Of a stretch of 64,000 nucleotides of DNA, positions 1 through 46,800 are shown one piece after another; positions within the stretch are counted from its first letter, which is position 1; each line of letters begins with the position of its first letter. The position numbers and the translations under genes were made by a program. Under the pieces are notes generated by a model. It did no database searches and was not told the DNA's origin. It saw nothing but the letters and a program-made list of their open reading frames with translations. Source of the stretch: an uncultured Planctomycetia bacterium (GTDB taxonomy: Bacteria; Omnitrophota; Gorgyraeia; 2-02-FULL-51-18); the NCBI GenBank assembly GCA_964606485.1, contig CAZSGP010000006.1, forward strand, positions 62,925 through 126,924, read 5' to 3'.

Positions 1-945
1 GAGCATTTTTAAATGATGGGATTCAAGAGGCGGTAAAATCGTCTGCTTAGAAACCGTGATAAATTTCTTAAAAACATAAGGCCGCGGCTGTTTGCCGTCG
101 ACGTTCGCAAACTCAAGTTCAAACTCAAATCGGTCGCCAGATCTGCTATCTTTTCCAAGGGATCGGCTCAAATCCGTATAAATGCGTTTGAACCAGGGTC
201 GCATGGCCACGCCGCAGACAAGACTCGTCATCGCGAAAATTCCTAAAGCGAAAGGATTATTATTTTTACTGCCTAAAACCGTGCGTTCAAAATCACCGCC
301 GGCCACTCGACCCACACTGGTGGACACATCATAAATAATGAGCCCTAAAAGCAGTAGCGCTCCAGAAAAAATGAATCCATAATCAAAAAACCGCATGAAA
401 CGGTCGGGAACCAACGCTCGAAATACTTTTTGGCCGTCCAAGGGTCCCAGTGGGAGCATGTTGGCGAGACCAAAAACTAAATTAATGTGCGCCACTGTTT
501 GAAAAATCCAGTAACCGGTGGCTAAGTATAGGCCTGCGAAAACCCCGTAAAGAATTAAATTCATGATAGGCCCGGCCAGCGCGATTTTGGCCAAGGCTAT
601 TTTATTTTCACCGTTTCCGGGATTAAAAAGCTTATTTTGAAAAACTGCAAAAAATAAAGTCGCGGGAACCCCTAAAAGTCCTGTGATGACAAGCGTCAGG
701 GCCGAAGCGCCGCTCATGAAACGCCACGGCTTCCATGAAATCTGACCGGCCATCCATGCAGAAACATCTCCCGCCTTGAGCGCCGCATAAGCGTGAGCCA
801 CTTCGTGCAGTACGATTGATTCTATGACCAGCCAAAACATTAGGACACCTTCAAGAAACCGAAGCGTCTCCACTTCCGCGAGTCGCGCACCGGCCATCGA
901 AAATTTCAGCTTTGATGCGGCGGGTTCGTCCAACATGTAGATCAC
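1..945 (-). other. M50 (site-2 protease)-like polytopic membrane domain at C-terminal end of giant ORF, continuing beyond window
   Basis: HExxH in a hydrophobic helix (IVLHEVAHAYA, 793-825) and NMLPLGPLDGQKVF (436-477) match the M50 HExxH / NxxPxxxLDGG motif pair, with hydrophobic helices around them. Confidence 0.65.
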
Positions 946-3900
946 GCTGTCCATGCGCTGAAGCATCGACACCGGAACGGACTCCGTGACCGGGCCCTGT
1001 AAACCACGAGCCACAATCTCCGCTTTTTTTTCGCCGTTAGCCATGAAAAAAATATTTTTGAACTCTGCGATATCCGCCATACCCATTGTGATCGCACGAG
1101 GCGCTTTGCGGATTTCCGGATAATCTTTTTCATTCGCAGCGATCGTAGACTCATTTAAATCGACGATCTGCATGGACTGGTTAAACCCGGAAAACCGCGG
1201 CGGCTCATTGAAAGCCAAGTGACCGTCGAGACCGACTCCTAAAATTCCAATATCCGCGCCGCCATTGTCCTTTAAATTTTTCATGTAACGCTCCAAGTGG
1301 CCCGGCACATTCCATTGGGAGCCGTCGATATAATGAATATTCGCTTCCGGAATCTTTACTCTCGAAAATAAATGCTTTCTTAAAAATGCTGCGAAGGAAC
1401 TCGGGTGACTGGGTGAAAGGCCCGCGTACTCATCAAGATGATAGGCCTGAACACGCGACCAGTCGATGTCTTGGCTAAATCGAGCCATATAATCCAACAT
1501 TTGTACCATGGTATTTCCGGTGGCAAAAACGATGTTTACACTTTTTCCAGATTTCTGGAGAGATTCGATTTTAGTAATGATCGCAATCGCCGCGGAAGAG
1601 GCAAATTTATGATCTTCCTCAACACGGATTAATTGTTTTGTGCGGCTGAGCGCAAGCTGAGAATCACCCGCTGAATTTTGAATCAAAATCTTTATTCTTT
1701 CCGATAAGTAACGAAGATAGGCGAGAAACTCCTTTTCGTCCGAAGGCTCGGTTATTCCCGCATCCGAATGGATCTCATCGATAAAATTTTTAAGTTCCGG
1801 CTCGGCTCTAAAAAATCGGTCGTACTTTTCTTCTAACGTCTGCTTAAACTCGCGAAAATCTTCTCTCCTATTCGCAAGGTTGGAATGGATAATTGCTAAG
1901 AAGCCTTTTTGATGCTCCTCAAGAATTCTTAGGAACATCGCTTCGGAGTCACGCGAAAAACTACCGGTCACCTTAATTTGAATTTCGTCTCCAAAAGCCC
2001 CATTTCCAGGAACAAGCTGAAAGTCCACACGGTAAAAATGACCGGCCAGCGCCATCGTGCGCGACACACCTGACCGACTCAGGCCTCGTGCCAACGCGTC
2101 AGAAACTTCGCGCAAATGGCCCGCGCCCACCACTTGGTAGGAGTATTCTCTGATTTCCTCTTTACGGGTTTTAGCAAAAAAACGAACGCGGCCGTTTGAC
2201 GGCGTGTCCTGGTAAAACCCGATTGAAAACCAGCGATTCTTCTTCGCGAAGCCTGCTTCAAGACGATCTCGAAACTCGTTTTTTATTCTTAATTCATCTT
2301 CGGCTCTTTGCAGAGGAGACCGAACAGCCGGATGGCCGTCAGGTCCCAAGCCGAATTCCCATTCGGAGATAGGATTACTGATCAGATGAGAGGGTTTTTC
2401 AGTTAACCGCGCTCCATTTGATTTAAATTTTTTCTCCAAATGGATGTAAGCAAAAGTTGCAGCAACACCCGCGGTGATGAGTTGTCCTGCGTACATTGCG
2501 CTGTCAGCAGCACTCAGCACCACGGGATCTCCTAAATGAATCCAGGAGAAGGTTCCCCCATAATTCCACACGTCAACCGCCGCCAATACCGCCGCCCAAA
2601 CGTAGAACCAGATGGCAAGATCAAGCGCGCTTTTAAGTTTTAAATACCCTTTCTCTTCGAGAACTAAACGGAGATAACCTGTCCCAATCGCCCATGCCAT
2701 TAGAAAGGCCGCACCCAGAATCCAGAACGGATCACGCGCGGCGTACACAATAAACGGAGGCGGATTGTGCAGAAGCTCGTGAGGCGTGACAAAAACCAGT
2801 GTTTTTTGATTTTCTTTGGATAAATTTTCATAGTAGGCCAGTCCGCGATCCGAAAAAACCTTTGGCCATATATAAAAAAATGGGGTGCTTGAAAAATAGA
2901 GACGCTCCATATAAGTATTCATCGGTACGCTTACTAAAATTATCAAAATCCGGATCATTTGACCAAGCGTTAGGTCATCCTCCGAAGAACCCGGTCTCAC
3001 CTCGACCTCGGTTTCTTGGGATTTCTGAACAAGCCGCGCGCCACGAGTCTCTCCAAAATCAATGCGCTCCCGCATGCGGTAAATCGTGCGGATAAGCTCA
3101 ATTCCTTGAGGGGAACGAAGTGTGTTCCCGATTCTTCCGTTTTGGCAGAGCTTTTTAATCACATCTTCTTCGTCTTCGTGGTCATTGCCTCTCCATTCTG
3201 CGTTAAGCAATTCCATCTTCGCAAGAATGCCCCTTAATAAACGCAGATCTCTGTGATTATTCTCTTTGGAAGCCAAACGCAGTTCTTCGTTAACGGTTTC
3301 CTCGGCCAGCCTAAAAATAGCCGTCATAGGAATCTTATTCCTGAAGCTTTTTATCTTTGCTTTCAATTTTGCTTTAAAATTGCGTTCGAGCCGGTGAATA
3401 AAAGCCTCTCTGCGGATTTCGGCTTCCTGGCTCTTTTGCCACTTTTTATAAAGAATATTTGCAATGCTTGCGGCAACAGCAAGCACCGCCAGCGTGCCCA
3501 AGGTAATACCTGAAAGCCGCGCGGCGGCAGGCAAAACCTCAAGCGCTTTGTCTTTTCTAAAACAAGCCAGGTACCACTCTGCGTTGTAGTGGCGAACTTC
3601 AGTATATTTTTCACTTGAGAAAAACGAGCGCTCGATTAAAAATTCTTTATCGGGCCTAAGACCCGGCAGCTCTTCGAACATGCCCGTTAAAACAAGGAAG
3701 CAAATTAAAGATCCGTTTTTCATTTGTAATCTTTTTTCTAGAAATTTACTTCTAAAATGAACGGCCTCGTCCCCCTCGGGTTCGGTGTAATAATAAAAAA
3801 CGAGATCCGCATCGCTCCAGGAAATATTAAACGCGTCCGTTTCGGGATAAAACTTAAAGTCGGGCTGTGCAATTTTTTTGGCCCGAGCATTCTCGAGCAG

Positions 3901-6900
3901 AGCTTCCGATTTTTTGGAGAGCATCTTAGAAATTTCAATAGAAGAGACCTTCATTCCAAAAACGTATTCTGCAAATATTCCTACCCGGAGATCTCCGGCG
4001 CCAAAATCAAGCAAGCGTTTATCTTTTAAGCACCCGTACCTCTTTTCAATTGCAAGAAACGACCGGTAAATATGCTCAAAATTTGCCATATCAAATAACG
4101 CCCCGCCCGAACCAAAGGGGCGATACTGATTTTGATATTCCTTATAAAATTTAATGACATCCTGTGCGCGCTTTGCTCGTTCCGTATCCGTATCGCTGAC
4201 ATTTAAAGAAAGCCTCGCCCCACCGGTTTCGGATTGAACTTTTTGAACGTACACGAGAAGCCTGCGGGCAATTCCGCTGGCTTCGGGGAATCCCATACGG
4301 ATAAAATGTTCCAGAAGCTGGATTAAATTATTTTCGGGAGTGCTTTGAGCACCCTTCACCCAAGTTTGAATCGCTATCACGGCTCGCCGAACTATGCCGG
4401 GATCAATCACTTCCTTAGCCAAGGAAACCCATACCTCCTTCACTTGATCGTCAAATAAATTGGGCTTTATAAGCAGTGCTTTTTGAAGTTCAGAGATAGC
4501 AGCGTCTCTTTCAGCGTCCGTTCCGAAAATGGCAGCCCTTAACAAGTTTGAGAAATTTATTTTATGGGCATCGGGCGCAGGCCCTTCCGCTTTAAGATTT
4601 TCAGCTATTTTCCAAATGCGCGCCCGCACAACCGTTTCGACCGGTTCATCAAAAATACGGTCACCCTCAACGCGGACTATTTTTCCTTCTCTGCAAAGTT
4701 TTTGACGGTTTACTTCCATGGCAACATTGAACTGATGCCACATATGGTCCCAAACCGCGCCGGCTTCTACGGAGGGATTCTGCCACCAGCGCTCATTTTC
4801 AGGAGTCTCAATGTTGTCCCACCACCAGGCCAGATCCTTGGCGGACTGCTCTAAACGAGCTTCGATATTTTGGCTAGGCCTGAAAACAGCCACGTCCATG
4901 GGAAGAAGCGATTGGTTCCGGTATTCATCGCGTTTAATTTCATTGTTTGCGACAGCTGCCAACGCAACCAGTTTTTCACCCACTTCAAGATTGACGCCGA
5001 AATGAAGGTTTTCAACTTTAGAAATCCGGTAACCCCCGGCAAAAAAATTGGAGGCGCGCGCCAAGATACGAAGCCCGATCATTTGCCGTGCCCAATTTTC
5101 ATCCATAACGCCGTTGAGTATTTTTTGAGCGTCTAACGACTCTTGACTAAAATTCCATCGCATCCGTTTTGTAATAGGTCCGCGGTCGATCGGTTCCAAA
5201 GCGGACGGCATCTGCCCCATCAAATGGGTGTCGCGCTTAAACAGCGAATCTAAATTCTTCTTTGAGGGCGACTCGTCGAATTTCTCATCCACTCGCGAGG
5301 GTTTCGCCGATAAAATCATTCGTGCGAGTGGCTCTTTCGCGTCGTTGATCAAGTCTATTCGCAAAAAGACGGTTCCGTCGGGCTGGGTTTTAACTAACTT
5401 CGTCCGGATTTTTAACGGCTGCAAATACAAGACCAGTCTGCTTCTATTTCCGTGAGGACGATTGGCTCGGAAATACAAAACTCGATCCGGATTAAAACCC
5501 GTCATCACGCGCTTCGCCTGGTTCACTAGCCGACTTAAGATCAGAAAATCATAAACGCGTTCTCCGGAAAGAAAATACCAGTAATAACCCTCATCAGATA
5601 GCCGTTGCGGCTCGCCTGACAACGAGAATAAATCCAGCATCCATTTCTCAAAACGGATCAGCTGTTCATCTAGCATCACACCACCGGAAAGCCGCGCGCC
5701 CCTCACAAAATCCACCACCACCTGATTCCATTCATCAAGATACTGAGGCAAATGCGAACGCAGCAGCGAGTGCTCCTGGCTTCCTTCGTCAATAATTTCA
5801 AGGGGGGTAGACATTGCCCGTGCATCTTCCCGCAGATTGTGAATGTCCACGAGCCGGTCGTGAGTGCTTGTCACGATGAGTTTTTTTGTGCCGTTTTTTC
5901 GCCGGACCGCGTTTGCCTTTTCGTGCATGTCAGACGGATAAGTCAAAATCGCGTGCAACTCTTCGAGCACATCGCGCGTCGACATGTTTTCGTAGTCCTG
6001 GCTAATCGCGTAGTGCAGCTCTTCCGGCACGCCGAGTTCCTTGAGCATTTTGAAAAAATATTTGCCTTGAGTAAAAGAACCCCAAAAGGGCGCTACAAAG
6101 AACGTCGCTGCAGCCGGCGCGTAAGACGCAAGCTGGGAAAACAGTCCCGAATACCTCTCAAGCGCTTTTTCTCTTAGCGCCACAACAGGCCAGGGTAAAC
6201 GTTCGGACACCGGCCACTTTAAAACAGTTAGCATCGGCTCAAGAATTTTTCGGACAGGCCCAAAATACGCTGACGCAGATTTCAGAAAATCTAAAATATT
6301 CCGGATCGCGTGATCCCTGTGTTTAAACGAAAAGGGATTGGAGCCGATCTCGACGGAAATTTTATCAATGACGTCCTGGTAGATTTCAGGCTGGCTAAAC
6401 AACGTGTCAATCAGCACATTTGCGTCCGAATGCCCCACCAGCACAATTGGCCGGTTGGGGTATTCTTTGGAAACCCATCGAATCGTGTGCGCAACGTTTC
6501 CAACGTAGTAATTCAAAATCTGTTCGGAACCCATTTTGCGAATGGCTAACGGCACGCGTCCCCGGTGGGGGGCCGCCACCGTCCAATCATCGGGAAAATT
6601 GGCTAATTGATTTTCCCAGGTGCCTCTGCCCACAAATCCGTGCACGAGCACGGCAAGTGGTGCTTGATTGGATGGCCCCTGACGTAAATCCACTTTAAAA
6701 CGGGTTTCAATGACTTGTCCCGCATGATCCTGAAACGGCCTTCCGTCCGATCCTGCCAGCGTCCGGGTTAATTCTACCTGCGGCCAGCGAAGTGCTTCTT
6801 TATCGACAAAAAAATCAACACGGGTTGGCTCGGGGTGTTTCCATAAAAGCCGCGCAGGCGCTTGAGTGAGCCAGTACTGCTTACGCTCAGGCTCCGAGCG

Positions 6901-9900
6901 TAAATCTTTGAGCACCCGATAAAGAGGCTTTCGCTTATGCCGGCCCGACATCATCACCATCGCGTGTTTCGAGTCAAAAAAAGCTTCCGGCGTCAGCGAC
7001 ATGAGATTTCCAGTCACCGCATACCCGGGGTCATACCGCTTTTTCAACAGCTCGCTTCCGGGGAAAATCGCGCCCATATTGGCTTGGCTACCGATACCCC
7101 AAATCGTGAGATCAAACCGGTTGCCGTTTTCGGCTAGCACTTCACGGCGTTTTATTTCGTAAGAAGCGACAAGCTCCTTAAATTTTTGAGCGTCCACGTC
7201 CACCCAATTCCCATCGTAAAAGCTAAAAAATTTCGGCTGGTCGATCGCGCGGTCTTTGCCCTTAATGCTTAAAAAATTAAAACAGGACCGGACCATCGCC
7301 TCATTGGCACCCGGCTCATCCGCCCCGGGTCCGCGCTCTTCCCCTAGGAAAAATACGATTCTCTGCATTTCTCCGGGCTTAAATCGAGTGTAGTATTCTT
7401 TTTTGGTGAGGAGCTTGTAAAATTTCACCGGGGTATCGCCTCCGGCAAGCGCTACAAAAAACTTGGCGTCTTTTTTGCTTCTTAGCTTTTGAATGGCAAG
7501 CTCTATAAACCGGTCCGCCGCTTTTTTACTCAATTCCTCATCGTTGAGAGCGGACGTGTCCACCCGGAACCGAGGTGTCGCGGCAATTCCTTCGCGCTGT
7601 CTTAGAAACTGATTAAATTCCTCTTCCCGCAGGGCGCGCGTCCGCGCAGGCGTCCACTCGCCGGCATCAAATCGCTCAAAAATTAAATCCGGACTGGCCT
7701 TCGTTCCGTATTCCACAATGCGGTCAAACTCGCTCCATTGATTTTTTGGGTGCAGGCGTTTTGGGTAGCCAAGCGCAAATCCCACAAACCGCTCGAGCTC
7801 CGCGTCGTCAAAGAAACCGTTTAAGTCCGGCGGATAAACCGGCTCTGCGATCAAACTCCATTTTTCATTTTTAATTTGCTCTTCAAATACTTTGAGCGCT
7901 GTCAAAAATGCCCGCCGGTTATGGGGCGGCGTGGTGACAAGTGAAACGGCCGTGTGATCAAGCTTGTAATCCGATACCGCCTGGGCAATGAGATGACGGC
8001 TCATCTTCAAATTTTCAACCGTGTTGGGCGTTGGCGTGGTGTCGCGGTAAATAACGGGCTTTCCTTGAAATTCGGTGGGCATATTAAAAGTATGCGTCAG
8101 AATAAATTCGATCAACTCCGACTCGGTCGACTGTTCATTTTTTAAGAGCCGCTTAAAAATAACGCGGTCGCGGCTTTTAAAAGAATAGGCATAATTTCTT
8201 AGCATTAAATCTTTCAAGTCCTGTGTCGCCCGGCCAATGCCGCCTGTGATCACTATCGGAATCACGTCCCCCGCTTCGAATCGCTTATTCCACATTTGGG
8301 CGAATGCTTCAAACGCTTTGAGATCTTGGTGTCCGAGCAGCGCGTAAACCGTGGGCTTGCCGCTAAAACCCGCTGTCTGCTCTGTTTTAGACAGTTCGTC
8401 AATTAGCGGCTGGATGGCTCCAATCATCCGGTTCCGGGAATCAGAGAGCACATTGGCCGCGAGGCGCGCGCCGCTTTGAATCGGATTGGGAGAGCCACGA
8501 TTAAACCTTAACTGTTGGAAATGAATATAATCCCGTGTCGTTTCTACATCCTGAGTCTTGAGCAGAACTTTTAATACCCGCGTAAACATTCCATGTCCAT
8601 AAACAAAAACGGTTTTGCCCGGATAGCGCTGGTTTATTTCGTCGATAAATTTCCGCACTCTCACCATAAACTCAGGAAAACTTTCGCCGTTTCGCGGCGC
8701 AATGAGGGCGCTGTTATTTTTATACGCCTGCGCCATTTTTTGCTGTGCGGGATCAAGCTCATCTATTTTTTTGCCGCCCCAGTCGCCGAAATTAATTTCT
8801 TTAGCGCGCATCTCCAATTCCACATCGATCGCCCGCTTCAAGCCGAGGTGATAAAGACGCGGGATTTGAAATGAAGCCGTTTCTCTTGCCCGGAAAAGCG
8901 GGCTCGTCAAAAACACATATCCTTTTCCCGGATCCCCATCACTCAGGAGACGCTGGTATTCTTGCCACAACTCCTGAGCTCCACGCCAGGCCTGGGATTT
9001 ACCTTTGTCGTCTAAACGAGCAAGCGGACCCTCGTTCTGACCCTGGAACACCTCCATAGAATTTCCGTAAGTATTGCCGTGCGGAATCATCACAAGATCA
9101 CATTTCAAAACCGGAGGCTCGTAGCCGGCTTTGTATCGGATATGACCCTCTTGATCAATGACTTCAAAACCAAGATCTGAAAGCATTTTTTTGCCTCTCA
9201 ATCGGCTTCTTAAGTCGTCATAAAATAAATATTTAAAAATTAAATTTGCCCAGGCGGCAAGACGCGCACCTGCTTGTTGGGACAATTTCTCGACATCTTT
9301 TTTTAGTTCCTTAATTTCCCTTTCAAAGTCCAGCATAAGGATGTTAAAAAGATCCAAATTTTTTCGGCTAATCGCCTGAGCGACGTGATTCACTAGCGCT
9401 GCCGACTTGGACTTTAATGTATTGATCAGATCAGCGCGTGTTTTACGATTAAGCGATGGATCTGAGAGTTTAATTCTGGCATGCGTCGCAAAGTCGGTTT
9501 GCGCATCAATTAAGCGATTATAAAGAGGCTGAAAATAAACCTGAGCCTCTATGGTTTCATTGAGTGCTCGCTCGCGGGCCAATTCGAAGAGCATTGGAAT
9601 AACTTTGTCTTTCGAATCAAACTCGCTCCCCTCAATCGTCGACAGGTATTGCTGAAGCTCTCCAGGAACACGCTCAGTCAGAAAGACGTTTCCCTTTATA
9701 TGATCCGCGAAATGAAAAACGCCGGGTTTACCGCGGCGCCCGGCACGCCCTTCGAGATGCAGCGCTGTGAGCAGTGACTTGCTGTAATGGGTGCTCAAAA
9801 CCACTAAGCCCGCAACCGATATTTTTTTCCCGCGGAATTCCGCTTCCACGGGCTTGTAAAGTTTAGGGTCCAATTTAATTTCGGCGCCGCGGCTAGCCAC

Positions 9901-12900
9901 CTGAGCTGTAATCGTGATGCTGAAAGAATCTCCGATTCTATTCCAATTAAGCGCATCGCTCACTTCATCACGTCCATTAATAACCCGAATCGGTTGGAGC
10001 GGCTGCGTGCCGCCCTTCAAAAAGGGTTGCCGCTCATTCTCGGCCTCGAGCGCATCGCGGTACATTTCGGCTTCTTCCGGCGAACGGGTATTGAGCAAAA
10101 TAGGACGACCGGTCTCATAAAACACGCGGATTGCATCCACAAAATGTGCGATCTTTTCTTTTTCGTTTAAAAAATATTCCTCCGGAATGACCGTTCGATT
10201 GTTGGGGTACTTGGGCTTAACTTGCCGAACCGTCGCGCCATAAAGCGCTTCTAAAGCCGCCGCGCGCTTGGAATCTAAAACTCCTATGACTGCGCTGAAC
10301 TCAAGTGTGTTCCTGTAAAAATAATGCGGCGTTAAGAGCTCGCGCGCGACCGCTTCCCCCATAACCTTCTTTCCTTCTTTAATTTCTAAAAAGGGTTGAA
10401 AAAAGCGGATAACACGGTGCTCCTGCCGATCGCCAGTAGATTCGTTTCTGAGCGTAATTTTTTGATCCCATTTACTCGAATGCTTGGCCCGGCTTGTCGA
10501 AAAATATTGTTCACCTTCCTTGTAAAATAATCGCGCTTGTATAGCAATGTCTAAAAGCTCGCGCGGAAACTCGGGGTCTGAATAAAACTTCTGCAAAACG
10601 TCTCTTTTGGACAACTCAGCCAGCTGAGCGCGCCTAGTTTCATCGAGCTCAATGTCAAGTTTTCTCCGAAATTGGCCCTCCTCTTCCACCCAAATGACTT
10701 TTACCTTTCCCTCATCTAAAAGCCGAGTCGCCAATTCATTTACAGCGATATAGATGCCTTTTAAGTCCTCATCCATCTCTTCCGTGGGGTCCGCAAAAAC
10801 GCGAGGCTCATACGCTTCGTCCCAGAGAGGTTCTTCTGCCTCATCTAAAAACACCCACTTTTTTTTGTCAGAACTTTGACTCTTTCCAAAATATTTTAGA
10901 GAGAATCTGTCGATCATATGCCTAAACATAAATTGATCGTAGGTCCCGTGAATAAAATCGGCCTTTCGAGCTAGTTCGGCGCCATTCGTCTCCGTTAAGG
11001 AGGCCGTTTTAAAACCTAGACGATTTAAGATGGCCTCGGCAACCGCTGAATTTCTGGATGCCAGCGGGATATTAAAATCATGTATTTCAACTCGGTAACC
11101 AAAAAGCATTTTTAAATACGCCGCTAGAACCAGCGAAAGTGACTTTCCTTCGGACATTCGCATGGTCACGAGCGCTCGATTCTCTAAGAGAAGTAAAGCC
11201 GCTTCAATTTGTTTCTCGTTAGGAAGACTATTCGGATCGGTGTTTTGATCTCCGATAAACGTCCGTATGGAATCATAATCCAAGCTCTTATCACTCGCCG
11301 TCTTCGCTGCGGCAATTGAAAAAATGGCAATAGCCCAACCTATAAACTCCGGATTTGTTTTTAATGTGGGGTCTGCTTTAAATTTTTCCTGAACCAATGG
11401 ATAAAGTGCTTCGATGGATTCTGGGCCCATATGAGTAAGAGTTTGAATAAATTTTGTTTTATACCTACAAACATCTTCTATGAATTTTTTTTCTTTGCGC
11501 GACCGCAGAGCCGCCTGAGTCTTCCTTAAGAAGCCTTCCGCATCCGATAAGGAATCAATCTCATAAAGCTTTAATTTTTTGTATAAAGTCCTTTGGTCTA
11601 TTCCAAGCCGAATGGCAGCAGCTCCTCTGAAGTCGCCTGTTGAGTATAAAGCCCCGATAATCACCATTTTTTCAAGCTCACGCCACTGCAACACTTCTTG
11701 CTTCGCCATCCACAAATAAGCCGATGAATAATTGACTTCAATTCGCTCACGGGCCGACGCCTGGGAATCCACGCCTTCGACTCGAATCTCGTTGGACACT
11801 CTCTGGGAATCCAACCCCGTACTCAGGGCGGTTCCGCGTATAGATCCGCAATTAGCGTACGCGTTCAAAATAAGCATTTGTTTAACGCGCCTTAAGTTGA
11901 AATCAATATTTTCTGGAAAATTTTCAAGCGGAGCTTCTGGCTTCTCATCAGGAATGATGGACCTTAGATTTTTTAAATCCAGCTTTCCTTTTTCAAAATC
12001 AATTTTATTTTGGAGTGTCTTTAAAAAATCGGAATGCTGTGCGTTCTTCGTTGCCAAAGCTGTCAGGGAATCCATAGTAGGAGCTTGGGCGTCGGTAACC
12101 GCAACTATTTCAATCGTTCCCATTTTTTCTTCAGCTGCGGCAAGTCGCGCGCCGTCAGATCTTATAATCGCAATATTGTGCAAAATTTCCCGAGCGCGTT
12201 TTCTAATTTTTTGAGTATAAATCGTGTCATCTGTTAACCCGCTGATGTCTTGACGAACGGCTTCGGTCAGCTCGTCCATCTGATCTTTTGAAAACAACAA
12301 AGGGTTTGTTAAAAGCATCTGATAGGCCGCTTCCGTCAAATTCCACCGACGGCTCGTATCTCCCATGCTCATCCCTTCGGCCAGATAACGCGATGCCAAG
12401 ACCGCATTGAATATTGAAGTTAATTCTTTTTCCGCCCACTTTTTTTGTGACAAGGGAATAATAATATCGTTGATAAATTTATCCATTTGAAATCCGGATT
12501 GGGATAAATCCCCTTCAGCGTAAGAGCGCTGAATGTTTCTCTTCGTTTTAATATGCCCAAAAGCCACAAAGAGTTTCCCCACTAGATAAAAATTAGTCGG
12601 ATCCGAAAAATCGGTTTCTTTGATGAGAAGTGACGCCACATTCAGCATGGCATACGATGCGCTGAGTGCCAGCGACTCTCTTTTCAGAGGTTCCTCATGA
12701 AGACCCGACCAGTGAATAAAAAACTGATTCCAAATCTCCCTCTTCTGGCTTGTGCTGGCATTTTCCAGCAAGTCATGAAGCGCATCAAAAAAATCAATTC
12801 GAACCTTCTGAATATCGCTGTCGGAGTTATCGTATTTTTTTAAATAGTCGTTCAAAATAATATCGATTTTGGTCGACGCATCGGTTTTCAATCCAACGGT

Positions 12901-14892
12901 TTTTTTATATTTTTCAAACGGGGACTCTCCGAAGCCCCAAGACTTCTTAAGCATTCTTGCCGCATCCTGGGGAGCGACGCCCCCGCAAGCGGCTAACAAC
13001 AGGGATAGTGCTAAAGCGGAGACACGGTTTATATAGACAGGGAGTCGCGCGCCTTCGCTCGGCGACCGGCTCCGGTCCTTGCGCTTCATATGCTCGATAT
13101 CCTTGAGAATGTTTTGAATCGTGGTTTTTACCGGTGAAGCGTAAAGGCCAAAAAACACCACCATCCCCAGAAGCTGACAAAGAGATTGCTCGGCGCGCTC
13201 CAAAACTTTCTCATCCGCCGCCAGTCCGAGTTTCGAGTTTTCACAGACTTTCACGATATCGGGATCAGACTGTACGATCTTGAGAATATATTCGGTCCGC
13301 TCTTTTTGAATAGCTCTCCATTCCTCTCTGTAGGCTCTCATTTTGCTTCGAACCCAATCCATCCAACCGAGCCTCGCGCCGCGCGACGCCTTCGTATTGT
13401 CGGTAACGACAGAGAAGATAACTTTCAACTCACTTTCCAAAGATTCTTTAACACTCAACCGGCCGCCCTGCGCCGGATACAACACCAAATTTGCTGCCGG
13501 CTGCACATTCCACAAAGCGCTCGGCGCCTGGATTTTTAAAGCATCGAAACGGGCAATGATTGGAGCAGCATTTTTAGGCGGAAGTTGAGATAGGAGTAAA
13601 TTTTCATACTTACGGACATTGGTTTCCGCAAGCACGCGCGGTTGGATAATCTCGCAATCGACCTCTTTGTCCGCAAAAAGCCGTTTCAAATGCTCCGAGT
13701 GAAAACCACCGGCGACGAGAATCGCTTTCGTTTCATTTTCAGATTTCATTTTTGAAAGCGTATTTTTTACAAACACGTGGTCGCGTTTTAAGGTGAGCGC
13801 ATAAAATGTTTTGGCCTTTTTAACGAATTTTTCGTAGCGAGGCTCAAGGTACACAGCGTTCTCAAAACCCTTGTGAAGACCAGAAATCATGCCGTTCAAA
13901 TCGCCGGATATTTTTTTCATCGAAAATTGCTTGGGGTTTTCTCGGATAGCCTTATAGTCGCCTGGCTCTAAATTGAGACGGGTTAGTTTTTGGAGTGTGT
14001 GGAGAGTTTCTCCGATCTCAGACAACCGTCTTTCGTCTGACGTCTGGACAATATTTTCAAAAATCCGATCTTCAAGCAGTGATTTTTCGCGAAGCAGCTC
14101 ATCCAAATCGAGTTTCCGCACGCGTTTAAGGTAATTTTTAGACGCCGTATTATTTTTCTTTAAAACTTTTTCAAGATGCGTCAGCCTGGAAAGCACTTGG
14201 ATTTGTGACAAATCTCCAAATGAAATACCTAGAGACTTCGCCTCCCGAACAAGATACGAAAAATAGTCAGCTGAAAGCATTTGTCCGGAATCAAATTGCG
14301 TTTTATTCGTATCGAATCGAAGCAGTCTTTCATTAAAAATCTTGGCCTTAAGGAAGCTGGCCGTTCGCTCCACCCGCTCTAGATACGCTTCGACGAAATC
14401 GCGCTCTAGTTTTAAATCACGATAAAGTCCGAGCCCTTCGAAATAAAGCGCTTTATCCTCCACTCCCCAAAGCTTGAAAGGCTTGTCCGAAATAAGGTCC
14501 AAGTAGTCCGGCCCTTGAATGGTCCCTTTCTGTAAAAAACTGTCCGCAATCTGCTTCGCTTTTCGACGATCGCCGATCGCTTTTGGTCTCAGATAAGACA
14601 GTGAGTCATCACCGGTTCCCGCTTCTAAAAATACAATCTTAATTTTTTCTTGAGTGATAAGCTCATCAATGGTTTTGGCGATATTTTTCTGCGCGGAAAG
14701 ATTCAAGTGCGCGTCTTGAATGATGTAGATTTTTTTAGTGAAGGGTTGCTTCGCTTGGTGAAAAAAAGAAAGCGGCTCACTACCGGCGGCAAATGCAAGA
14801 TCTTGCGCCAAAAAAGAAATAACGAGTGCAAATGATAGGCACTTTAAAAAGCTTGGGGTTCTGCTTTTTAAAAGATTAAATTTATAAAACAA
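1..14892 (-). CDS. Giant multidomain protein, at least 4,960 aa, 3' end beyond window start. Probable TTG start near 14892 followed by a signal peptide (FYKFNLLKSRTPSFLKCLSFALVISFLAQDLAFA). Domain modules are listed as separate features.
   Basis: Reverse-strand frame (codon first bases at coordinates divisible by 3) is open from the stop at 14947-14949 down to coordinate 1. This was checked codon by codon at 1-960, 5690-5710, 9250-9285, 9710-9755, 13030-13060 and 14830-14950. The ORF track shows only short antisense ORFs in this 14.9 kb, consistent with one ORF lacking an in-window stop. Multiple specific family motifs are present in frame. Confidence 0.8.
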   Translation of the reverse strand, partial: MFYKFNLLKSRTPSFLKCLSFALVISFLAQDLAFAAGSEPLSFFHQAKQPFTKKIYIIQDAHLNLSAQKNIAKTIDELITQEKIKIVFLEAGTGDDSLSYLRPKAIGDRRKAKQIADSFLQKGTIQGPDYLDLISDKPFKLWGVEDKALYFEGLGLYRDLKLERDFVEAYLERVERTASFLKAKIFNERLLRFDTNKTQFDSGQMLSADYFSYLVREAKSLGISFGDLSQIQVLSRLTHLEKVLKKNNTASKNYLKRVRKLDLDELLREKSLLEDRIFENIVQTSDERRLSEIGETLHTLQKLTRLNLEPGDYKAIRENPKQFSMKKISGDLNGMISGLHKGFENAVYLEPRYEKFVKKAKTFYALTLKRDHVFVKNTLSKMKSENETKAILVAGGFHSEHLKRLFADKEVDCEIIQPRVLAETNVRKYENLLLSQLPPKNAAPIIARFDALKIQAPSALWNVQPAANLVLYPAQGGRLSVKESLESELKVIFSVVTDNTKASRGARLGWMDWVRSKMRAYREEWRAIQKERTEYILKIVQSDPDIVKVCENSKLGLAADEKVLERAEQSLCQLLGMVVFFGLYASPVKTTIQNILKDIEHMKRKDRSRSPSEGARLPVYINRVSALALSLLLAACGGVAPQDAARMLKKSWGFGESPFEKYKKTVGLKTDASTKIDIILNDYLKKYDNSDSDIQKVRIDFFDALHDLLENASTSQKREIWNQFFIHWSGLHEEPLKRESLALSASYAMLNVASLLIKETDFSDPTNFYLVGKLFVAFGHIKTKRNIQRSYAEGDLSQSGFQMDKFINDIIIPLSQKKWAEKELTSIFNAVLASRYLAEGMSMGDTSRRWNLTEAAYQMLLTNPLLFSKDQMDELTEAVRQDISGLTDDTIYTQKIRKRAREILHNIAIIRSDGARLAAAEEKMGTIEIVAVTDAQAPTMDSLTALATKNAQHSDFLKTLQNKIDFEKGKLDLKNLRSIIPDEKPEAPLENFPENIDFNLRRVKQMLILNAYANCGSIRGTALSTGLDSQRVSNEIRVEGVDSQASARERIEVNYSSAYLWMAKQEVLQWRELEKMVIIGALYSTGDFRGAAAIRLGIDQRTLYKKLKLYEIDSLSDAEGFLRKTQAALRSRKEKKFIEDVCRYKTKFIQTLTHMGPESIEALYPLVQEKFKADPTLKTNPEFIGWAIAIFSIAAAKTASDKSLDYDSIRTFIGDQNTDPNSLPNEKQIEAALLLLENRALVTMRMSEGKSLSLVLAAYLKMLFGYRVEIHDFNIPLASRNSAVAEAILNRLGFKTASLTETNGAELARKADFIHGTYDQFMFRHMIDRFSLKYFGKSQSSDKKKWVFLDEAEEPLWDEAYEPRVFADPTEEMDEDLKGIYIAVNELATRLLDEGKVKVIWVEEEGQFRRKLDIELDETRRAQLAELSKRDVLQKFYSDPEFPRELLDIAIQARLFYKEGEQYFSTSRAKHSSKWDQKITLRNESTGDRQEHRVIRFFQPFLEIKEGKKVMGEAVARELLTPHYFYRNTLEFSAVIGVLDSKRAAALEALYGATVRQVKPKYPNNRTVIPEEYFLNEKEKIAHFVDAIRVFYETGRPILLNTRSPEEAEMYRDALEAENERQPFLKGGTQPLQPIRVINGRDEVSDALNWNRIGDSFSITITAQVASRGAEIKLDPKLYKPVEAEFRGKKISVAGLVVLSTHYSKSLLTALHLEGRAGRRGKPGVFHFADHIKGNVFLTERVPGELQQYLSTIEGSEFDSKDKVIPMLFELARERALNETIEAQVYFQPLYNRLIDAQTDFATHARIKLSDPSLNRKTRADLINTLKSKSAALVNHVAQAISRKNLDLFNILMLDFEREIKELKKDVEKLSQQAGARLAAWANLIFKYLFYDDLRSRLRGKKMLSDLGFEVIDQEGHIRYKAGYEPPVLKCDLVMIPHGNTYGNSMEVFQGQNEGPLARLDDKGKSQAWRGAQELWQEYQRLLSDGDPGKGYVFLTSPLFRARETASFQIPRLYHLGLKRAIDVELEMRAKEINFGDWGGKKIDELDPAQQKMAQAYKNNSALIAPRNGESFPEFMVRVRKFIDEINQRYPGKTVFVYGHGMFTRVLKVLLKTQDVETTRDYIHFQQLRFNRGSPNPIQSGARLAANVLSDSRNRMIGAIQPLIDELSKTEQTAGFSGKPTVYALLGHQDLKAFEAFAQMWNKRFEAGDVIPIVITGGIGRATQDLKDLMLRNYAYSFKSRDRVIFKRLLKNEQSTESELIEFILTHTFNMPTEFQGKPVIYRDTTPTPNTVENLKMSRHLIAQAVSDYKLDHTAVSLVTTPPHNRRAFLTALKVFEEQIKNEKWSLIAEPVYPPDLNGFFDDAELERFVGFALGYPKRLHPKNQWSEFDRIVEYGTKASPDLIFERFDAGEWTPARTRALREEEFNQFLRQREGIAATPRFRVDTSALNDEELSKKAADRFIELAIQKLRSKKDAKFFVALAGGDTPVKFYKLLTKKEYYTRFKPGEMQRIVFFLGEERGPGADEPGANEAMVRSCFNFLSIKGKDRAIDQPKFFSFYDGNWVDVDAQKFKELVASYEIKRREVLAENGNRFDLTIWGIGSQANMGAIFPGSELLKKRYDPGYAVTGNLMSLTPEAFFDSKHAMVMMSGRHKRKPLYRVLKDLRSEPERKQYWLTQAPARLLWKHPEPTRVDFFVDKEALRWPQVELTRTLAGSDGRPFQDHAGQVIETRFKVDLRQGPSNQAPLAVLVHGFVGRGTWENQLANFPDDWTVAAPHRGRVPLAIRKMGSEQILNYYVGNVAHTIRWVSKEYPNRPIVLVGHSDANVLIDTLFSQPEIYQDVIDKISVEIGSNPFSFKHRDHAIRNILDFLKSASAYFGPVRKILEPMLTVLKWPVSERLPWPVVALREKALERYSGLFSQLASYAPAAATFFVAPFWGSFTQGKYFFKMLKELGVPEELHYAISQDYENMSTRDVLEELHAILTYPSDMHEKANAVRRKNGTKKLIVTSTHDRLVDIHNLREDARAMSTPLEIIDEGSQEHSLLRSHLPQYLDEWNQVVVDFVRGARLSGGVMLDEQLIRFEKWMLDLFSLSGEPQRLSDEGYYWYFLSGERVYDFLILSRLVNQAKRVMTGFNPDRVLYFRANRPHGNRSRLVLYLQPLKIRTKLVKTQPDGTVFLRIDLINDAKEPLARMILSAKPSRVDEKFDESPSKKNLDSLFKRDTHLMGQMPSALEPIDRGPITKRMRWNFSQESLDAQKILNGVMDENWARQMIGLRILARASNFFAGGYRISKVENLHFGVNLEVGEKLVALAAVANNEIKRDEYRNQSLLPMDVAVFRPSQNIEARLEQSAKDLAWWWDNIETPENERWWQNPSVEAGAVWDHMWHQFNVAMEVNRQKLCREGKIVRVEGDRIFDEPVETVVRARIWKIAENLKAEGPAPDAHKINFSNLLRAAIFGTDAERDAAISELQKALLIKPNLFDDQVKEVWVSLAKEVIDPGIVRRAVIAIQTWVKGAQSTPENNLIQLLEHFIRMGFPEASGIARRLLVYVQKVQSETGGARLSLNVSDTDTERAKRAQDVIKFYKEYQNQYRPFGSGGALFDMANFEHIYRSFLAIEKRYGCLKDKRLLDFGAGDLRVGIFAEYVFGMKVSSIEISKMLSKKSEALLENARAKKIAQPDFKFYPETDAFNISWSDADLVFYYYTEPEGDEAVHFRSKFLEKRLQMKNGSLICFLVLTGMFEELPGLRPDKEFLIERSFFSSEKYTEVRHYNAEWYLACFRKDKALEVLPAAARLSGITLGTLAVLAVAASIANILYKKWQKSQEAEIRREAFIHRLERNFKAKLKAKIKSFRNKIPMTAIFRLAEETVNEELRLASKENNHRDLRLLRGILAKMELLNAEWRGNDHEDEEDVIKKLCQNGRIGNTLRSPQGIELIRTIYRMRERIDFGETRGARLVQKSQETEVEVRPGSSEDDLTLGQMIRILIILVSVPMNTYMERLYFSSTPFFYIWPKVFSDRGLAYYENLSKENQKTLVFVTPHELLHNPPPFIVYAARDPFWILGAAFLMAWAIGTGYLRLVLEEKGYLKLKSALDLAIWFYVWAAVLAAVDVWNYGGTFSWIHLGDPVVLSAADSAMYAGQLITAGVAATFAYIHLEKKFKSNGARLTEKPSHLISNPISEWEFGLGPDGHPAVRSPLQRAEDELRIKNEFRDRLEAGFAKKNRWFSIGFYQDTPSNGRVRFFAKTRKEEIREYSYQVVGAGHLREVSDALARGLSRSGVSRTMALAGHFYRVDFQLVPGNGAFGDEIQIKVTGSFSRDSEAMFLRILEEHQKGFLAIIHSNLANRREDFREFKQTLEEKYDRFFRAEPELKNFIDEIHSDAGITEPSDEKEFLAYLRYLSERIKILIQNSAGDSQLALSRTKQLIRVEEDHKFASSAAIAIITKIESLQKSGKSVNIVFATGNTMVQMLDYMARFSQDIDWSRVQAYHLDEYAGLSPSHPSSFAAFLRKHLFSRVKIPEANIHYIDGSQWNVPGHLERYMKNLKDNGGADIGILGVGLDGHLAFNEPPRFSGFNQSMQIVDLNESTIAANEKDYPEIRKAPRAITMGMADIAEFKNIFFMANGEKKAEIVARGLQGPVTESVPVSMLQRMDSVIYMLDEPAASKLKFSMAGARLAEVETLRFLEGVLMFWLVIESIVLHEVAHAYAALKAGDVSAWMAGQISWKPWRFMSGASALTLVITGLLGVPATLFFAVFQNKLFNPGNGENKIALAKIALAGPIMNLILYGVFAGLYLATGYWIFQTVAHINLVFGLANMLPLGPLDGQKVFRALVPDRFMRFFDYGFIFSGALLLLGLIIYDVSTSVGRVAGGDFERTVLGSKNNNPFALGIFAMTSLVCGVAMRPWFKRIYTDLSRSLGKDSRSGDRFEFELEFANVDGKQPRPYVFKKFITVSKQTILPPLESHHLKML
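950..1720 (-). other. Glucosamine-6-phosphate deaminase/isomerase (NagB)-like domain
   Basis: IVFATGNTMVQML ... HLDEYAGL ... GADIGILGVGLDGHLAFNEPP (verified at 1201-1260) ... APRAITMGM ... DEPAASKL. This is a close match to NagB family motifs (GsTp, DEY, GiGenGHiaFNEP, AiTmG, D.aAa.L). Confidence 0.7.
1750..2350 (-). other. Second TraB/GumN-type GxxH region (YQVVGAGHLREVSDALARGL)
   Basis: VVGAGHL matches the TraB/GumN C-terminal signature. Confidence 0.35.
3700..4100 (-). other. Class I SAM-dependent methyltransferase-like domain
   Basis: Motif I KRLLDFGAGDLRVGIFAEY, followed by acidic and hydrophobic motifs typical of the Rossmann MTase fold. Confidence 0.4.
6150..6660 (-). other. alpha/beta-hydrolase-like domain
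   Basis: VLVHGFVGRGTWENQ (HG oxyanion motif) and IVLVGHSDANV (nucleophile-elbow-like GHSxA) within about 80 residues. Confidence 0.4.
6950..7500 (-). other. 6-phosphogluconolactonase/NagB-fold domain (first copy)
   Basis: FFVALAGGDTPVKFYKLL and FFLGEERGPGADEPGANEAMVR resemble Pgl/DevB motifs (alSGGsTP ... gDER..p.d..SN). Confidence 0.5.
8570..9100 (-). other. Histidine-phosphatase (phosphoglycerate-mutase) fold-like domain with variant first motif (IPHGNTYGN instead of RHG)
   Basis: LVMIPHGNTYGNS ... GESFPEFMVRV ... TVFVYGHGMFTRVL pattern matches the RHGx..N / GES / HGG layout of the family, but the catalytic Arg position is Pro. Confidence 0.35.
9650..11250 (-). other. SecA-like DEAD-box motor domain embedded in giant ORF
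   Basis: In-frame motifs: VTMRMSEGKSLSLVLAAYLKMLFGYRVEIHDFNIPLASRNSA (compare SecA [37 protein letters not shown]); KADFIHGTYDQFMFRHMIDRF (SecA DITYGTNNEFGFDYLRDNM); ASRGAEIKL (SecA AGRGTDIxL); LHLEGRAGRRGKPGVFHF (SecA motif VI LRGRSGRQGDPGSSRFY), verified at 9711-9753. Confidence 0.6.
13500..14800 (-). other. TraB/GumN/TIKI-like N-terminal domain shared with the two other giant ORFs (motifs IYIIQDAH and ILVAGGFHSEHLKRLF)
   Basis: Alignable by eye with the N-termini of the 44746..50247 ORF (VWLIEDIH; VLVVGGFHTAGLVNDL) and the 58437..64000 ORF (FIVGGYHAPSLQKLF). The [IV]VG[GA]xH..L pattern resembles the C-terminal GxxH motif of the TraB/GumN family. Confidence 0.45.
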
Positions 14893-15073
14893 AATAAATT
14901 TCACCCAATATTTTAAATTAATCTGAACATAAAATTTAACAACGGGTTAAAGTAAAAAGTGCTCGGAAAAGTATGCCTAATCTGCTCAGTAAAATCAAAT
15001 TCGGTTAAAAAAAATTTTTAATCAGAAGTAAGTGAATTTAAGCACAAGTGACTCATTCAAAAAAAATATTGGC

Positions 15074-16015: not shown

Positions 16016-16026
16016 AAAATGCTATC

Positions 16027-16107: not shown

Positions 16108-16111
16108 CGAG

Positions 16112-17445: not shown

Positions 17446-17475
17446 TGAACCTTCCTTTGTACAAGTTTGGTTATT

Positions 17476-44745: not shown

Positions 44746-46800
44746 TCAAGCGCTAGCCGCTAACTGCTGATAAGCAAGAATGGACTGCCAGTACCCAAAA
44801 GCGCTCCTCAGATATTTTTTTAGATCATAATATCCATTCAACATTTCTTTCGGAGGGTTGCTTCCAAATACAAGCTTCAACACTTCCAGGCGATCCTCGG
44901 GCGTGCGAACTTGGCTCATCCAAAACTGAAAACCAGCCTCAAGACGCAGGGCTACTTTTTCTGCAGGCAGTGTTTTCACGCGGCTGTCCATCCCGGCGGC
45001 AATACAAAATGTGTTGTCGCCGAGTTTCTCAAGAATATCTATCGTGTCCCGATAGGGGCTCGCGGACTCGATGAGCTGGCCTTGAAACTTTGGCAGGGCC
45101 TCCAGAGAACTCTTGAGCGCTTCTTTTTGGGAATTCGGTCCCGGATCCAATAAAATAAGCCAATAAGCGCTTGGCATCCCAGAAACAAGCCGGGTAAGTT
45201 CGCGCGTTTCAAGAAGAGAGGCGTCTACGATGTTGACGCGACGCTGACCCGCTGCTTCAATCGGCAGCGGCACAAAAACCGGCCAATTGGAGAGGTTTTT
45301 CTCCAAATCCAAAATTTTCAACAATCTTGTGAGCCGCGCGCCCTTACTATCTTTATCGGTTTTCATTGCCCCGCGCGGTTTTGTTTCCCACGGGTAAGGA
45401 TTGGCGCCGAGTCGGTTTAACGTTTGTGCGGTCTTAAAAATTTTAAGTTTGGCATCTTCAATCCGCATCAATAATTCGCCGATTTTTTGCTCATTTTCCA
45501 TCTGTGATTCTAAGCTTTCATTGGGACTGCGCCAAACTCCCCCTGGAAATATCTTTTGAAATTGCTCCAAGCTCTGATCCAGACGCTCCAACTCCTTTAC
45601 CAAAAGATGCATCGATATAAAAGCTTGGTTGTAAGCCGCGGCAAACTCACTGCGCGCTATTTGAACGCGAAGCTCGGCCTCCTTGACATTGGCTTGGGCC
45701 AAAGCCAAATCCGCCTCAAGTGGCGCGCCAAACGGAACCTTCAGCTGAAACGTTTGTTCACGACTCACAGCGCCATAAGATTCGAGCGGCCGGCCGGCGA
45801 GCTCGTGAAAAAATGGCCCCGGCATGTCACTGGGTCTAGGATTGGTTCCCCAAAAAGCGCCTATATTGAGAGACGCTCTTTGAGTGCGCTCGGCAAACGA
45901 GTAAGCGTGTTGCGCGGCCTCATAATCCCTTTCGGCTGCTAAGATCGCGGGGTTTGCCGCGGCGGCTTCTTGAAACGCAATATTACCGCGCCTCAAGATC
46001 GCCACCGCATTGTTAAAGCTGGTTTCAAAATCCAAAGAAACACTTATCTCCTTTCCTTGATCCAGCGGTGAACCGGAAAGCAGCATGAGTATTTTAGACT
46101 CTAGTTCATTGGCTTCTATATGAAGTTGTAAGATGTCGGCCTGCAACGCGGGGATTTCTCTTTGCGCTTTTTGCCTCGCTTTCTGGTTTGCCGGAACAGC
46201 AAGTTGAGTCAGCCGTTTTAAGGAAACCTGCCGCCCTTCCAAAATCTTTATTTTTTGACGTGTCAAATTAAGTTCAATCAAAAGATCGGCCGCTTGGTTT
46301 TTTTGAGCTAAAACGGTTTCCTGTAAACGGTGAAAACTCGCCAAAACCAATTGGCTCTGAATAAGGCGCGCTTCTTCGTCGGCACCCAGCAGTTTTCGTA
46401 AAAGCGCTCCCGCAAAATCGGCAGCTAAGGACAAACCGTTACTCCCGTAGATCGCCGACAAATTAATAGCCCCACTTGGGGTCATATAGGATACCGCCGA
46501 ACTAACAACCGGTTTATTGCCCTCGAACCCCCCGGTTATTTCGATAGCCCATCCGGGCTCCAGTCTTCCCTGCGCGGCTTCCTGTCGCCAAACATCAAGT
46601 CCCGAAAGTTTGACGTTTAAATTTTTTTCAATGAACGGCCAAAGATCATCGACACTCAAAAGAATCTTTCCGGGTTTGAACTGCTCTGGTATTTGCCGCG
46701 CTGGCTTAGGCGAAATAGGCTCCCAAGGCGCGCTTGCGCAGGACGGAATTATTACAACCGTGGCAAGACTCAGCAGCGACGCCAGTGCAAATGGTTTGCG
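44746..46800 (-). other. NodT/TolC-like outer membrane factor module preceded by its own lipoprotein-type signal peptide (AHRKPFALASLLSLATVVIIPSC) inside the 1,833-aa ORF
   Basis: The positively charged n-region + hydrophobic core + Cys follow immediately after GDGARL (verified DNA at 46795-46830). Downstream coiled-coil repeats (LAQKNQAADLLIELNLTRQKI..., EAELRVQIARSEFAAAYNQAF...) are typical of OMF proteins, and NodT-family OMFs are N-terminally lipidated. Confidence 0.5.

Follow-up and report, generated by a model that had tools for sequence, protein, structure and literature searches.

Why does a protein that is not SecA carry a SecA-type ATPase? This question is raised by a 64,000-nt stretch of DNA from an uncultured bacterium, deposited as Planctomycetia and placed by GTDB in the Omnitrophota (GenBank assembly GCA_964606485.1, contig CAZSGP010000006.1, positions 62,925 to 126,924; the whole stretch is termed the window below). 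A preliminary description of this DNA had placed a SecA-like motor at 9,650-11,250 inside a giant protein. This span lies on the minus strand within a single stop-free frame (14946..1) that extends past the window start. The giant gene (1..14904, minus strand) starts at GTG 14904, as called on an independent Logan contig, and encodes 5,725 amino acids (aa) (P0002; locus L031). The window comprises codons 1-4,968; the C-terminal 757 aa lie past the window start. Positions in the protein are counted from the GTG at 14,904. The Logan contig and the window DNA are identical over 10,982 nt, and both assemblies contain the same open reading frame (ORF). An alternative genetic code or a fused-operon artefact was rejected, since 5,725 codons are free of in-frame stops and the ORF recurs in the independent assembly. 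The best overall explanation, to which we give about an even chance, is that the ATPase is a diverged SecA-family module of a self-processing polyprotein, from which it is released as an accessory motor.

The motor belongs to the SecA ATPase family as judged from its sequence, in which it is highly diverged, yet it is neither SecA nor SecA2. In Pfam, SecA_DEAD is matched with 58.4 bits (cut-off 24.6) and P-loop_SecA with 44.9 bits (cut-off 27) at 9,700-11,230; SecA_SW is not matched. A phmmer search against all PDB sequences returned only SecA and SecA2 (best E=1.3e-19), colinear with E. coli SecA residues 80-596. Thus, the region does not behave like a generic DEAD/DEAH helicase devoid of SecA features. 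Foldseek with an AlphaFold2 (AF2) model of the unit yielded SecA or SecA2 at ranks 1-36 (E 3e-27 to 1e-16), and the first other superfamily 2 (SF2) helicase followed at E 2e-8. The model has a predicted local distance difference test score (pLDDT) of 64 and was built from a shallow SecA alignment, so that the fold search is not independent of the sequence evidence. Pfam, phmmer and Foldseek agree on SecA, which supports a SecA-type motor in a giant non-SecA protein, as first described. The motor consists of nucleotide-binding domain 1 (NBD1), an insert at the position of the preprotein cross-linking domain (PPXD) and NBD2. Identity to SecA amounts to 24-31%, corresponding to a very long branch. 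The best NCBIfam SecA model scores 98 bits against a cut-off of 814, and the SecA2 models score 66-79 bits against 725-1,100, all below their cut-offs. No canonical secA is present within the 64-kb window.

The anatomy of the unit was read from an alignment with its eight closest relatives and canonical SecAs. All five motif blocks quoted initially are there, ordered and in one frame on the minus strand. NBD1 (SecA_DEAD, 10312..11226) is supported by Pfam, by the E. coli SecA alignment and by the clade alignment. It contains Walker A (MRMSEGKSL, 11137-11163, with SEGKS at 11154-11140 and its Lys at K1254), motif Ia (11047-11091, with DFNIPLASRNS at 11079-11047), motif Ib (10915-10956, with GTYDQFMFRHM at 10947-10915) and Walker B (VFLDEAEE, 10813-10854). 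The PPXD-position insert (10345..10794, about 150 aa) is colinear with E. coli SecA and the clade. Its stem FLEIKEGKK resembles the canonical GLHQAIEAKEG, Pfam SecA_PP_bind is unmatched even at E<=10, and the AF2 pLDDT is below 50 there. NBD2 (9700..10188, Pfam P-loop_SecA) holds motif V (9871-9909, with ASRGAEIKL at 9897-9871) and motif VI (LEGRAGRRGKPG, 9721-9756). In the C-terminal helical region (9271..9612), the scaffold helix of SecA has its counterpart in the first long helix, and the AF2 helices are of low confidence. Here, hhalign reports a probability of 88% and E 3e-6 for about 98 columns only, which span motif VI to the first scaffold helix; for the last ~80 aa it finds no match in the wing domain or the two-helix finger. 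SecA-specific N-terminal helices are present, and the C-terminal tail, which binds Zn and SecB, is absent.

Several catalytic motifs deviate from the canonical ones. Walker A reads MRMSEGKS (M[RL]PSEGKT in the clade, MxTGEGKT in canonical SecA), Walker B LDEAE (clade VEEGD, canonical DEVD/DEAD), motif V SRGAEI instead of GRGTDI, and motif VI GRAGRRGKPG instead of GRSGRQGDPG. Motif III has lost its TGT. Nevertheless, nine clade members all retain the Walker A Lys, the Walker B Glu and the Arg residues of motif V (one) and motif VI (two); these Arg residues are also invariant in canonical SecA. As these nine share only about 30% identity, this argues for an ATP site that works and is under purifying selection. 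In sum, the unit is colinear with canonical SecA/SecA2 in NBD1, NBD2, the first scaffold helix and the presence of an insert at the PPXD position, and has these catalytic residues in common with them. Unlike them, it lacks wing, two-helix finger, C-terminal tail and motif III, carries an N-terminal helix-turn-helix (HTH) extension and is embedded in a larger ORF.

How unusual is such a protein? Word-index homology searches gave canonical SecAs only and missed all giant relatives, which were found by an exhaustive HMMER search. Among 1.84 billion (1.84e9) representatives, nine proteins had E<1e-30: P0002 and eight relatives of 1,795-6,608 aa with 32-38% identity over the module. These eight score 186-318 bits and canonical SecAs at most 104 bits; the separate grouping is judged by these scores. 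A scan of GTDB species representatives, which did not include the window's own genome, gave as closest loci Ca. Omnitrophus fodinae (35% identity, open frame of at least 5,329 aa), Omnitrophota metagenome-assembled genomes (MAGs) and one 'Elusimicrobia' MAG. The view that a SecA-type motor outside SecA/SecA2 is rare therefore holds for the number of close representatives and does not hold for the group. Most giant Omnitrophota proteins contain divergent SecA DEAD and preprotein-binding domains without scaffold and wing; these domains group in a separate clade with long branches, occur beside a normal secA and were proposed to aid export of the giant protein (West-Roberts et al., bioRxiv 10.1101/2023.11.21.568195). 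A 20-protein PF07517 architecture cluster was listed later (bioRxiv 10.64898/2026.06.07.730766). Since the 2023 preprint already describes such domains, a SecA-like domain in a giant protein is not novel as a type and is ordinary for this group.

The present protein resembles those giants in that an NBD1/PPXD-like/NBD2 unit without scaffold and wing resides in a multi-enzyme protein of several thousand residues with signal peptide and transmembrane (TM) segments, and this unit forms a very long branch apart from canonical SecA. With 5,725 aa it is well below the more than 30,000 aa of the proteins in the preprint, and it is of the multi-enzyme type, unlike the Archaeovorin or Dockerin types. 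The same preprint asked whether such proteins remain a single chain or are cut, stated that the cleavage points are unknown and named C39 and S8 peptidases as possible processors (bioRxiv 10.1101/2023.11.21.568195). No C39 or S8 peptidase was found in the giant protein; instead, it has a leader domain with a TIKI fold and an explicit recurrent junction motif. This motif, the leader domain, the export signals directly after junctions and the SecA-like unit as a junction-bounded module appear to be new. The literature searched contains no account of any of the four.

The junction motif is the tetrapeptide GARL, which occurs 12 times in 5,725 aa versus 0.22 expected (Poisson P~2e-17). Two AARL bring the total to 14 sites, 11 of which fall within the window part. 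All sites lie between domains: None is inside a Pfam- or structure-defined domain of P0002, and none is inside a Pfam domain in the relatives L025 and L026. On the minus strand, GARL at aa 509 (13369..13380) directly follows the leader domain, and GARL at aa 618 (13042..13053) is followed by a lipoprotein-type signal. Two GARLA, at aa 918 (12142..12153) and aa 1879 (9259..9270), form the N- and C-terminal edges of the SecA-like unit and thereby define a 961-aa module. GARLA at aa 2145 (8461..8472) closes a histidine-phosphatase module, and GARLS at aa 3069 (5689..5700) closes a module of 924 aa. Further downstream, GARLS is found at aa 3562 (4210..4221), AARLS with a TM segment directly after it at aa 3794 (3514..3525), and GARLV in front of a multi-TM module at aa 3955 (3031..3042). 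GARLT at aa 4164 (2404..2415) precedes a module ending in a NagB/6-phosphogluconolactonase-like domain. Finally, GARLA at aa 4672 (880..891) is directly followed by the first TM helix of a Peptidase_M50 module. The Gly, Arg and Leu codons of the junctions vary synonymously, so selection acts on the peptide. A DNA repeat, a recombination site or a restriction site as origin of GARL was ruled out by this variation together with GTRL, GSRL and AARL in relatives. As a separate matter of codon usage, all 11 of these junctions of the giant gene use GCG for Ala, compared with 40% GCG in the gene as a whole; in the other two paralogues, GCA is used in 4 of 9 sites. The CGN that comes next may cause the bias through a codon-pair effect.

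The same type of motif recurs beyond this protein. A metagenome scan revealed six long ORFs that open with the leader domain, and in each of them a variant of the junction motif leads the enriched 4-mers. The top 4-mers among leader-domain relatives are AARL (8 times), GTRL (6), GARL with GARM (7 and 4), GARL with GSRL (6 and 5) and GARL (6). In 67 pooled [GA][ATS]R[LM] matches, the next residue, which the search pattern had left free, is mostly Ala (66%) or Ser (18%), and the flanks show no conservation. This gives the consensus [GA][ATS]-R-[LM]-[AS], recurring 6-14 times per protein. The first junction stands directly after the leader domain in every relative. Of the SecA-module relatives, P0003-P0010 contain no GARL. 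In its place, a recurrent A-x-SLG is seen in the O. fodinae branch (P0003-P0005, L003), with A.SLG 7 times versus 0.2 expected in P0004 and SLGQ 6 times versus 0.13 in P0005. The SecA-like module ends at a junction in both branches, with SQQAGARLA in P0002 and AQAASLGQ in the SLG branch, where AASLGQ occupies the site homologous to aa 1879. The module can be aligned with its relatives along its full length, and the junction-to-junction distance of about 960 aa is also seen in P0004 (1036 to 1999) and P0005 (1577 to 2537). The 4-mers ALFG and SGQI, enriched in L014 and L015, were traced to internal domain duplications and rejected as junctions.

Which other part of the protein accompanies the junctions? 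A comparison of P0002 segments with relatives showed that only the SecA-like module and the first ~450 residues are common, and all other modules differ. These first residues comprise the leader domain (13555..14742, minus strand), which is located at the N-terminus of nearly all relatives. It is recognised by no Pfam or NCBIfam model, and searches with it found hypothetical proteins without Pfam domains. It has the alpha/beta fold of the TIKI/EreA/ChaN/TraB/RRSP superfamily with a parallel beta-sheet core. It was set beside the EreA-like proteins 2rad and 2qgm, ChaN, the erythromycin esterase EreC, a TraB-family protein, HopBA1 and the MARTX endopeptidase RRSP. Active members of this superfamily have a 2His/2Glu site, and the His-Glu pairs H85/E113 of Bcr135 and H3902/E3930 of RRSP are 28 residues apart in both (PMC6254334). 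H66 (QDAH) and E94 (FLEAG) of the leader domain are likewise separated by 28 residues. Together with D64, which precedes H66 by two residues (D64-x-H66), and H402 (GGFH), they form the candidate catalytic site. The His, the Glu and GG[FY]H are kept in all 22 family members inspected, and the first acidic residue is Asp, Asn or Thr, not Glu. In contrast to the superfamily, the leader carries a helical insertion of ~240 residues between the Glu and the second His. The intact catalytic constellation, as read from the sequence, predicts a hydrolase. The residue two before the conserved His (14701-14724, minus strand) is Asp (QDAH) in Arg-junction lineages and Asn (QNAH) in the A-x-SLG branch (P0003-P0006). 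This switch is a weak hint at co-variation of protease and substrate with the junction Arg, or plain phylogeny.

Support for cleavage at the junctions is provided by export signals. A hydrophobic signal-like segment directly follows 7 of 77 junctions, compared with 3.7% background (p=0.02); this enrichment is modest. Three of these segments are lipobox signals (LAAC, LPAC, IPSC). The giant protein has one, where GARL is followed by PVYINRVSALALSLLLAAC (lipobox 12979-13008); the other two belong to the 1,833-aa paralogue 44746-50247 (aa ~525 and ~1150). All three start mid-ORF directly after junctions. In L026, GSRL is followed by the twin-arginine (Tat) signal SALNRRQLLAGSGAAAVLAAF (NRRQLL, ORF aa 2022). 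The others are two TM anchors and the natural N-terminus of the Peptidase_M50 module (TM1 with HExxH). As an N-terminus is required for lipoprotein and Tat signals to function, their placement fits cutting at the junction. The organism makes lipoproteins, since the window holds a gene with an Lgt domain. A 2026 genome survey drops internal signal-peptide calls as artefacts (bioRxiv 10.64898/2026.06.07.730766).

From these data, the following mechanism can be proposed. The polyprotein would be cut at the junctions, probably after Leu, and the leader domain would be the prime candidate protease. Once cut out, the SecA-like unit would be an ATPase of ~108 kDa in its own right, whose N-terminal region contains a Fis-type HTH. 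The freed motor would act on polypeptides: As a private SecA2-like accessory motor, it could unfold or export sister modules that bear lipoprotein, Tat or TM signals. These steps are not equally secure. Cutting of the chain at the junctions, as suggested by the sequence, is slightly favoured over an uncut chain. The activity of the freed ~108-kDa motor on signal-bearing sisters as a private unfoldase or exporter is more tentative and has the chances rather against it. Still more doubtful is the assignment of the leader domain as the protease. If the mechanism is confirmed, a polyprotein strategy of viral style would be found in cellular organisms, the SecA-like unit would have to be seen as an accessory motor that is set free and no longer as an embedded domain, and giant proteins could be divided rationally for structure prediction. 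As to the question whether and where giant proteins are cut, the junction motif already supplies predicted cleavage sites and a candidate protease.

A functional parallel is found in the MARTX toxins, multi-effector proteins of more than 5,000 aa in which a protease domain cuts after Leu between the modules (PMC2780291, PMC2900308). Both the toxins and the protein here exceed 5,000 aa, contain modular, unrelated enzymatic cargo and have short sites with Leu followed by a small residue. Moreover, the TIKI fold of the leader domain is shared by RRSP, an effector of MARTX. Unlike in MARTX, the conserved domain here is N-terminal and TIKI-like, the cargo includes a SecA-like motor and modules with bacterial export signals, and cleavage is presumptive. 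RTX repeats, glycine-rich repeats and the inositol hexakisphosphate (InsP6)-activated cysteine protease had no Pfam or NCBIfam match anywhere in the 5,725 aa. The resemblance is a functional analogy, suggested by comparison, and not membership. A far-reaching version of the proposal, which we regard as speculative and rather improbable, can be put as follows: The very long genes of this lineage could be true bacterial polyproteins, operons written as one ORF, in which an N-terminal TIKI-fold protease behind a signal peptide would cut [GA][ATS]R[LM] before [AS], with a matching Asp-to-Asn exchange beside the catalytic His in the SLG branch. About a dozen proteins would be released: enzymes of metabolism, regulators, membrane proteases, lipoproteins and a Tat substrate, along with a private SecA-like ATPase, which would unfold or export its signal-bearing siblings, possibly inside a prey cell in the manner of MARTX effectors.

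Several observations weigh against a self-processing polyprotein with a released protein motor. Cleavage at the junctions is something that we infer from the sequence, and the enrichment of post-junction signals is, as mentioned above, modest. The leader follows a classical Sec signal peptide and may therefore be periplasmic. It is probably exported, whereas Tat and lipoprotein signals need cytoplasmic exposure, so protease and substrate may reside in different compartments. Members of the TIKI superfamily are often esterases or binding proteins, not peptidases. The motor has lost motif III (TGT) and has an atypical Walker A (SEGKS), and its PPXD-like insert is not recognised by Pfam and of low AF2 confidence. 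The HTH_8 in the motor module suggests nucleic acids rather than protein export. Furthermore, the distant SecA-module relatives P0007-P0010, L004, L005 and L015 have no enriched junction motif. Conversely, GARL-type metagenome relatives contain no SecA-like module in their first 2,600-3,900 aa, and one complete member of 2,631 aa has none. This means, the motor is not an obligatory partner of the junction system.

Among the alternatives, the one that survives best accepts the cuts and exchanges the scissors. The junctions might be cut by another protease, either the M50 peptidase of the same chain, a separate host protease or a prey-cell protease after delivery, and the TIKI-fold leader would be an esterase or an adhesion or targeting domain. 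This is rather unlikely. In its favour are the M50 module in the same chain, a probably exported leader next to junctions whose signals need the cytoplasm, and the many superfamily members that are not peptidases. It is opposed by motif-bearing relatives that lack M50, by the leader being the sole constant partner of the motif, and by the Asp/Asn residue, which covaries weakly with the motif Arg. As relatives do not share M50, this peptidase is unlikely as the family-wide protease.

A second alternative leaves the giant chain whole. The embedded SecA-like domain would then act in cis and thread its own chain, or TM and extracytoplasmic segments of it, through SecYEG, with the junctions as flexible linkers or docking motifs. 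This corresponds to the self-contained export or remodelling function that the preliminary description had envisaged and to the proposal of the 2023 preprint. It would be in line with an N-terminal signal peptide and several TM segments in one chain and with the conserved ATPase residues. Internal lipobox and twin-arginine signals would be useless in an uncut chain, and by our own reasoning only a cut chain would leave the ATPase on the proper side of the membrane, given the predicted topology. In addition, a linker needs no invariant Arg and no five-residue consensus across relatives of ~35-50% identity, and the parts that engage SecY, two-helix finger and wing, are undetectable. Export in cis is considered unlikely.

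Less probable again is a function apart from protein transport, in which the module would be an SF2 ATPase re-purposed for nucleic acids, for instance a remodeller or regulator that depends on DNA or RNA and is directed by the Fis-type HTH. From the junction at aa 918 to the SecA core, ~200 residues (11566-12141, minus strand) contain two HTH elements that precede the motor within its module, namely HTH_8 (11566..11682; Pfam 26.9 bits, cut-off 22) and a second, weak one. The HTH_8 region is conserved in P0003, P0005 and P0006, and both elements are kept in several relatives. SecA itself is built on a DEAD-helicase core, and the SecY-engaging parts are lost here. The PPXD-position insert with its conserved stem motif is, however, kept across the clade, the matches are SecA and SecA2 only, with helicases about 10 orders of magnitude worse, and helicase motif III is lost. 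The poorest candidate is a structural relic without catalytic activity in a giant protein that evolves fast, since the very long branch and the atypical motifs (MSEGKS, DEAE for DEVD, no motif III) are outweighed by the purifying selection seen in the invariant Lys, Glu and three Arg of the ATP site.

Under the preferred reading of a self-processing polyprotein, the SecA-like module (9271..12141, minus strand, ~960 aa between two junctions) would be released with HTH region, NBD1, PPXD-like insert, NBD2, the scaffold-like helix and two more helices. What else does the giant protein encode? At its N-terminus, a signal-peptide-like segment (CLSFALVISFLAQDLAFA before AG; 14782..14841, minus strand) forms a hydropathy peak behind a Lys/Arg-rich n-region, and cleavage by signal peptidase is presumed. 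The basic n-region is followed by an h-region of 11-13 residues and QDLxxAxP; h-region and QDLxxAxP are kept in relatives. The initial characterisation of the cargo as secreted-type modules was correct for a few modules with export signals or TM segments; most are cytoplasmic-type enzymes (histidine phosphatase, NagB/6PGL-like, methyltransferase, HTH). The His_Phos_1 module comprises 266 aa between the junctions at aa 1879 and 2145 (Pfam domain 8521-9093, minus strand). The 924-aa module ending at aa 3069 contains DUF218-like, Glucosamine_iso and alpha/beta-hydrolase-like domains on the same strand. The Peptidase_M50 module after aa 4672 (Pfam 31.7 bits, cut-off 27.2; minus strand) has HExxH at 790-810 and NxxPxxxLDG at 433-462.

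The window holds three leader-domain paralogues, all on the minus strand. Besides the giant gene, a gene of 1,833 aa (44746..50247) encodes the leader domain, three GARL (two followed by the lipoprotein-type signals described above), HEAT repeats and an OEP/TolC-like domain. The second (58440..63998, at least 1,853 aa) begins inside the leader domain and contains 3 GARL and 3 AARL as well as HTH_3 and Response_reg. As this ORF passes the window end, GTG 63821 is not its true start. Elsewhere, one metagenome contig (L030) carries two leader-domain ORFs in tandem (9749-17641 and 18663-21317); the first is complete with 2,631 aa and has no SecA-like module. In P0164 (ERZ1426824 / ERZ1426835), a close relative called as a 701-aa leader-domain protein, AGARLAA comes after the domain, and its ORF shares ~29 nt with the next one, which has at least 3,116 aa. 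This overlap could reflect a giant gene split by a frameshift, which would be either programmed or an error of assembly.

Other genes of the window belong to different contexts. An ORF of 1,797 aa (32222-37615, minus strand) has an N-terminal two-partner secretion (TPS) domain and a C-terminal beta-propeller, with neither leader domain nor GARL; a scan of neighbouring ORFs revealed no TpsB-type partner. Thymidylate kinase is matched by two ORFs that lie side by side with a slight overlap (23452-24150 and 24104-24832, minus strand). At 29518-30654 (plus strand), prolipoprotein diacylglyceryl transferase (LGT) and phosphatidylserine decarboxylase domains are fused in one ORF, which is unusual. 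Stand-alone histidine-phosphatase genes are located at 25834-26331 and 57255-57881 and share their family with one module of the giant protein.

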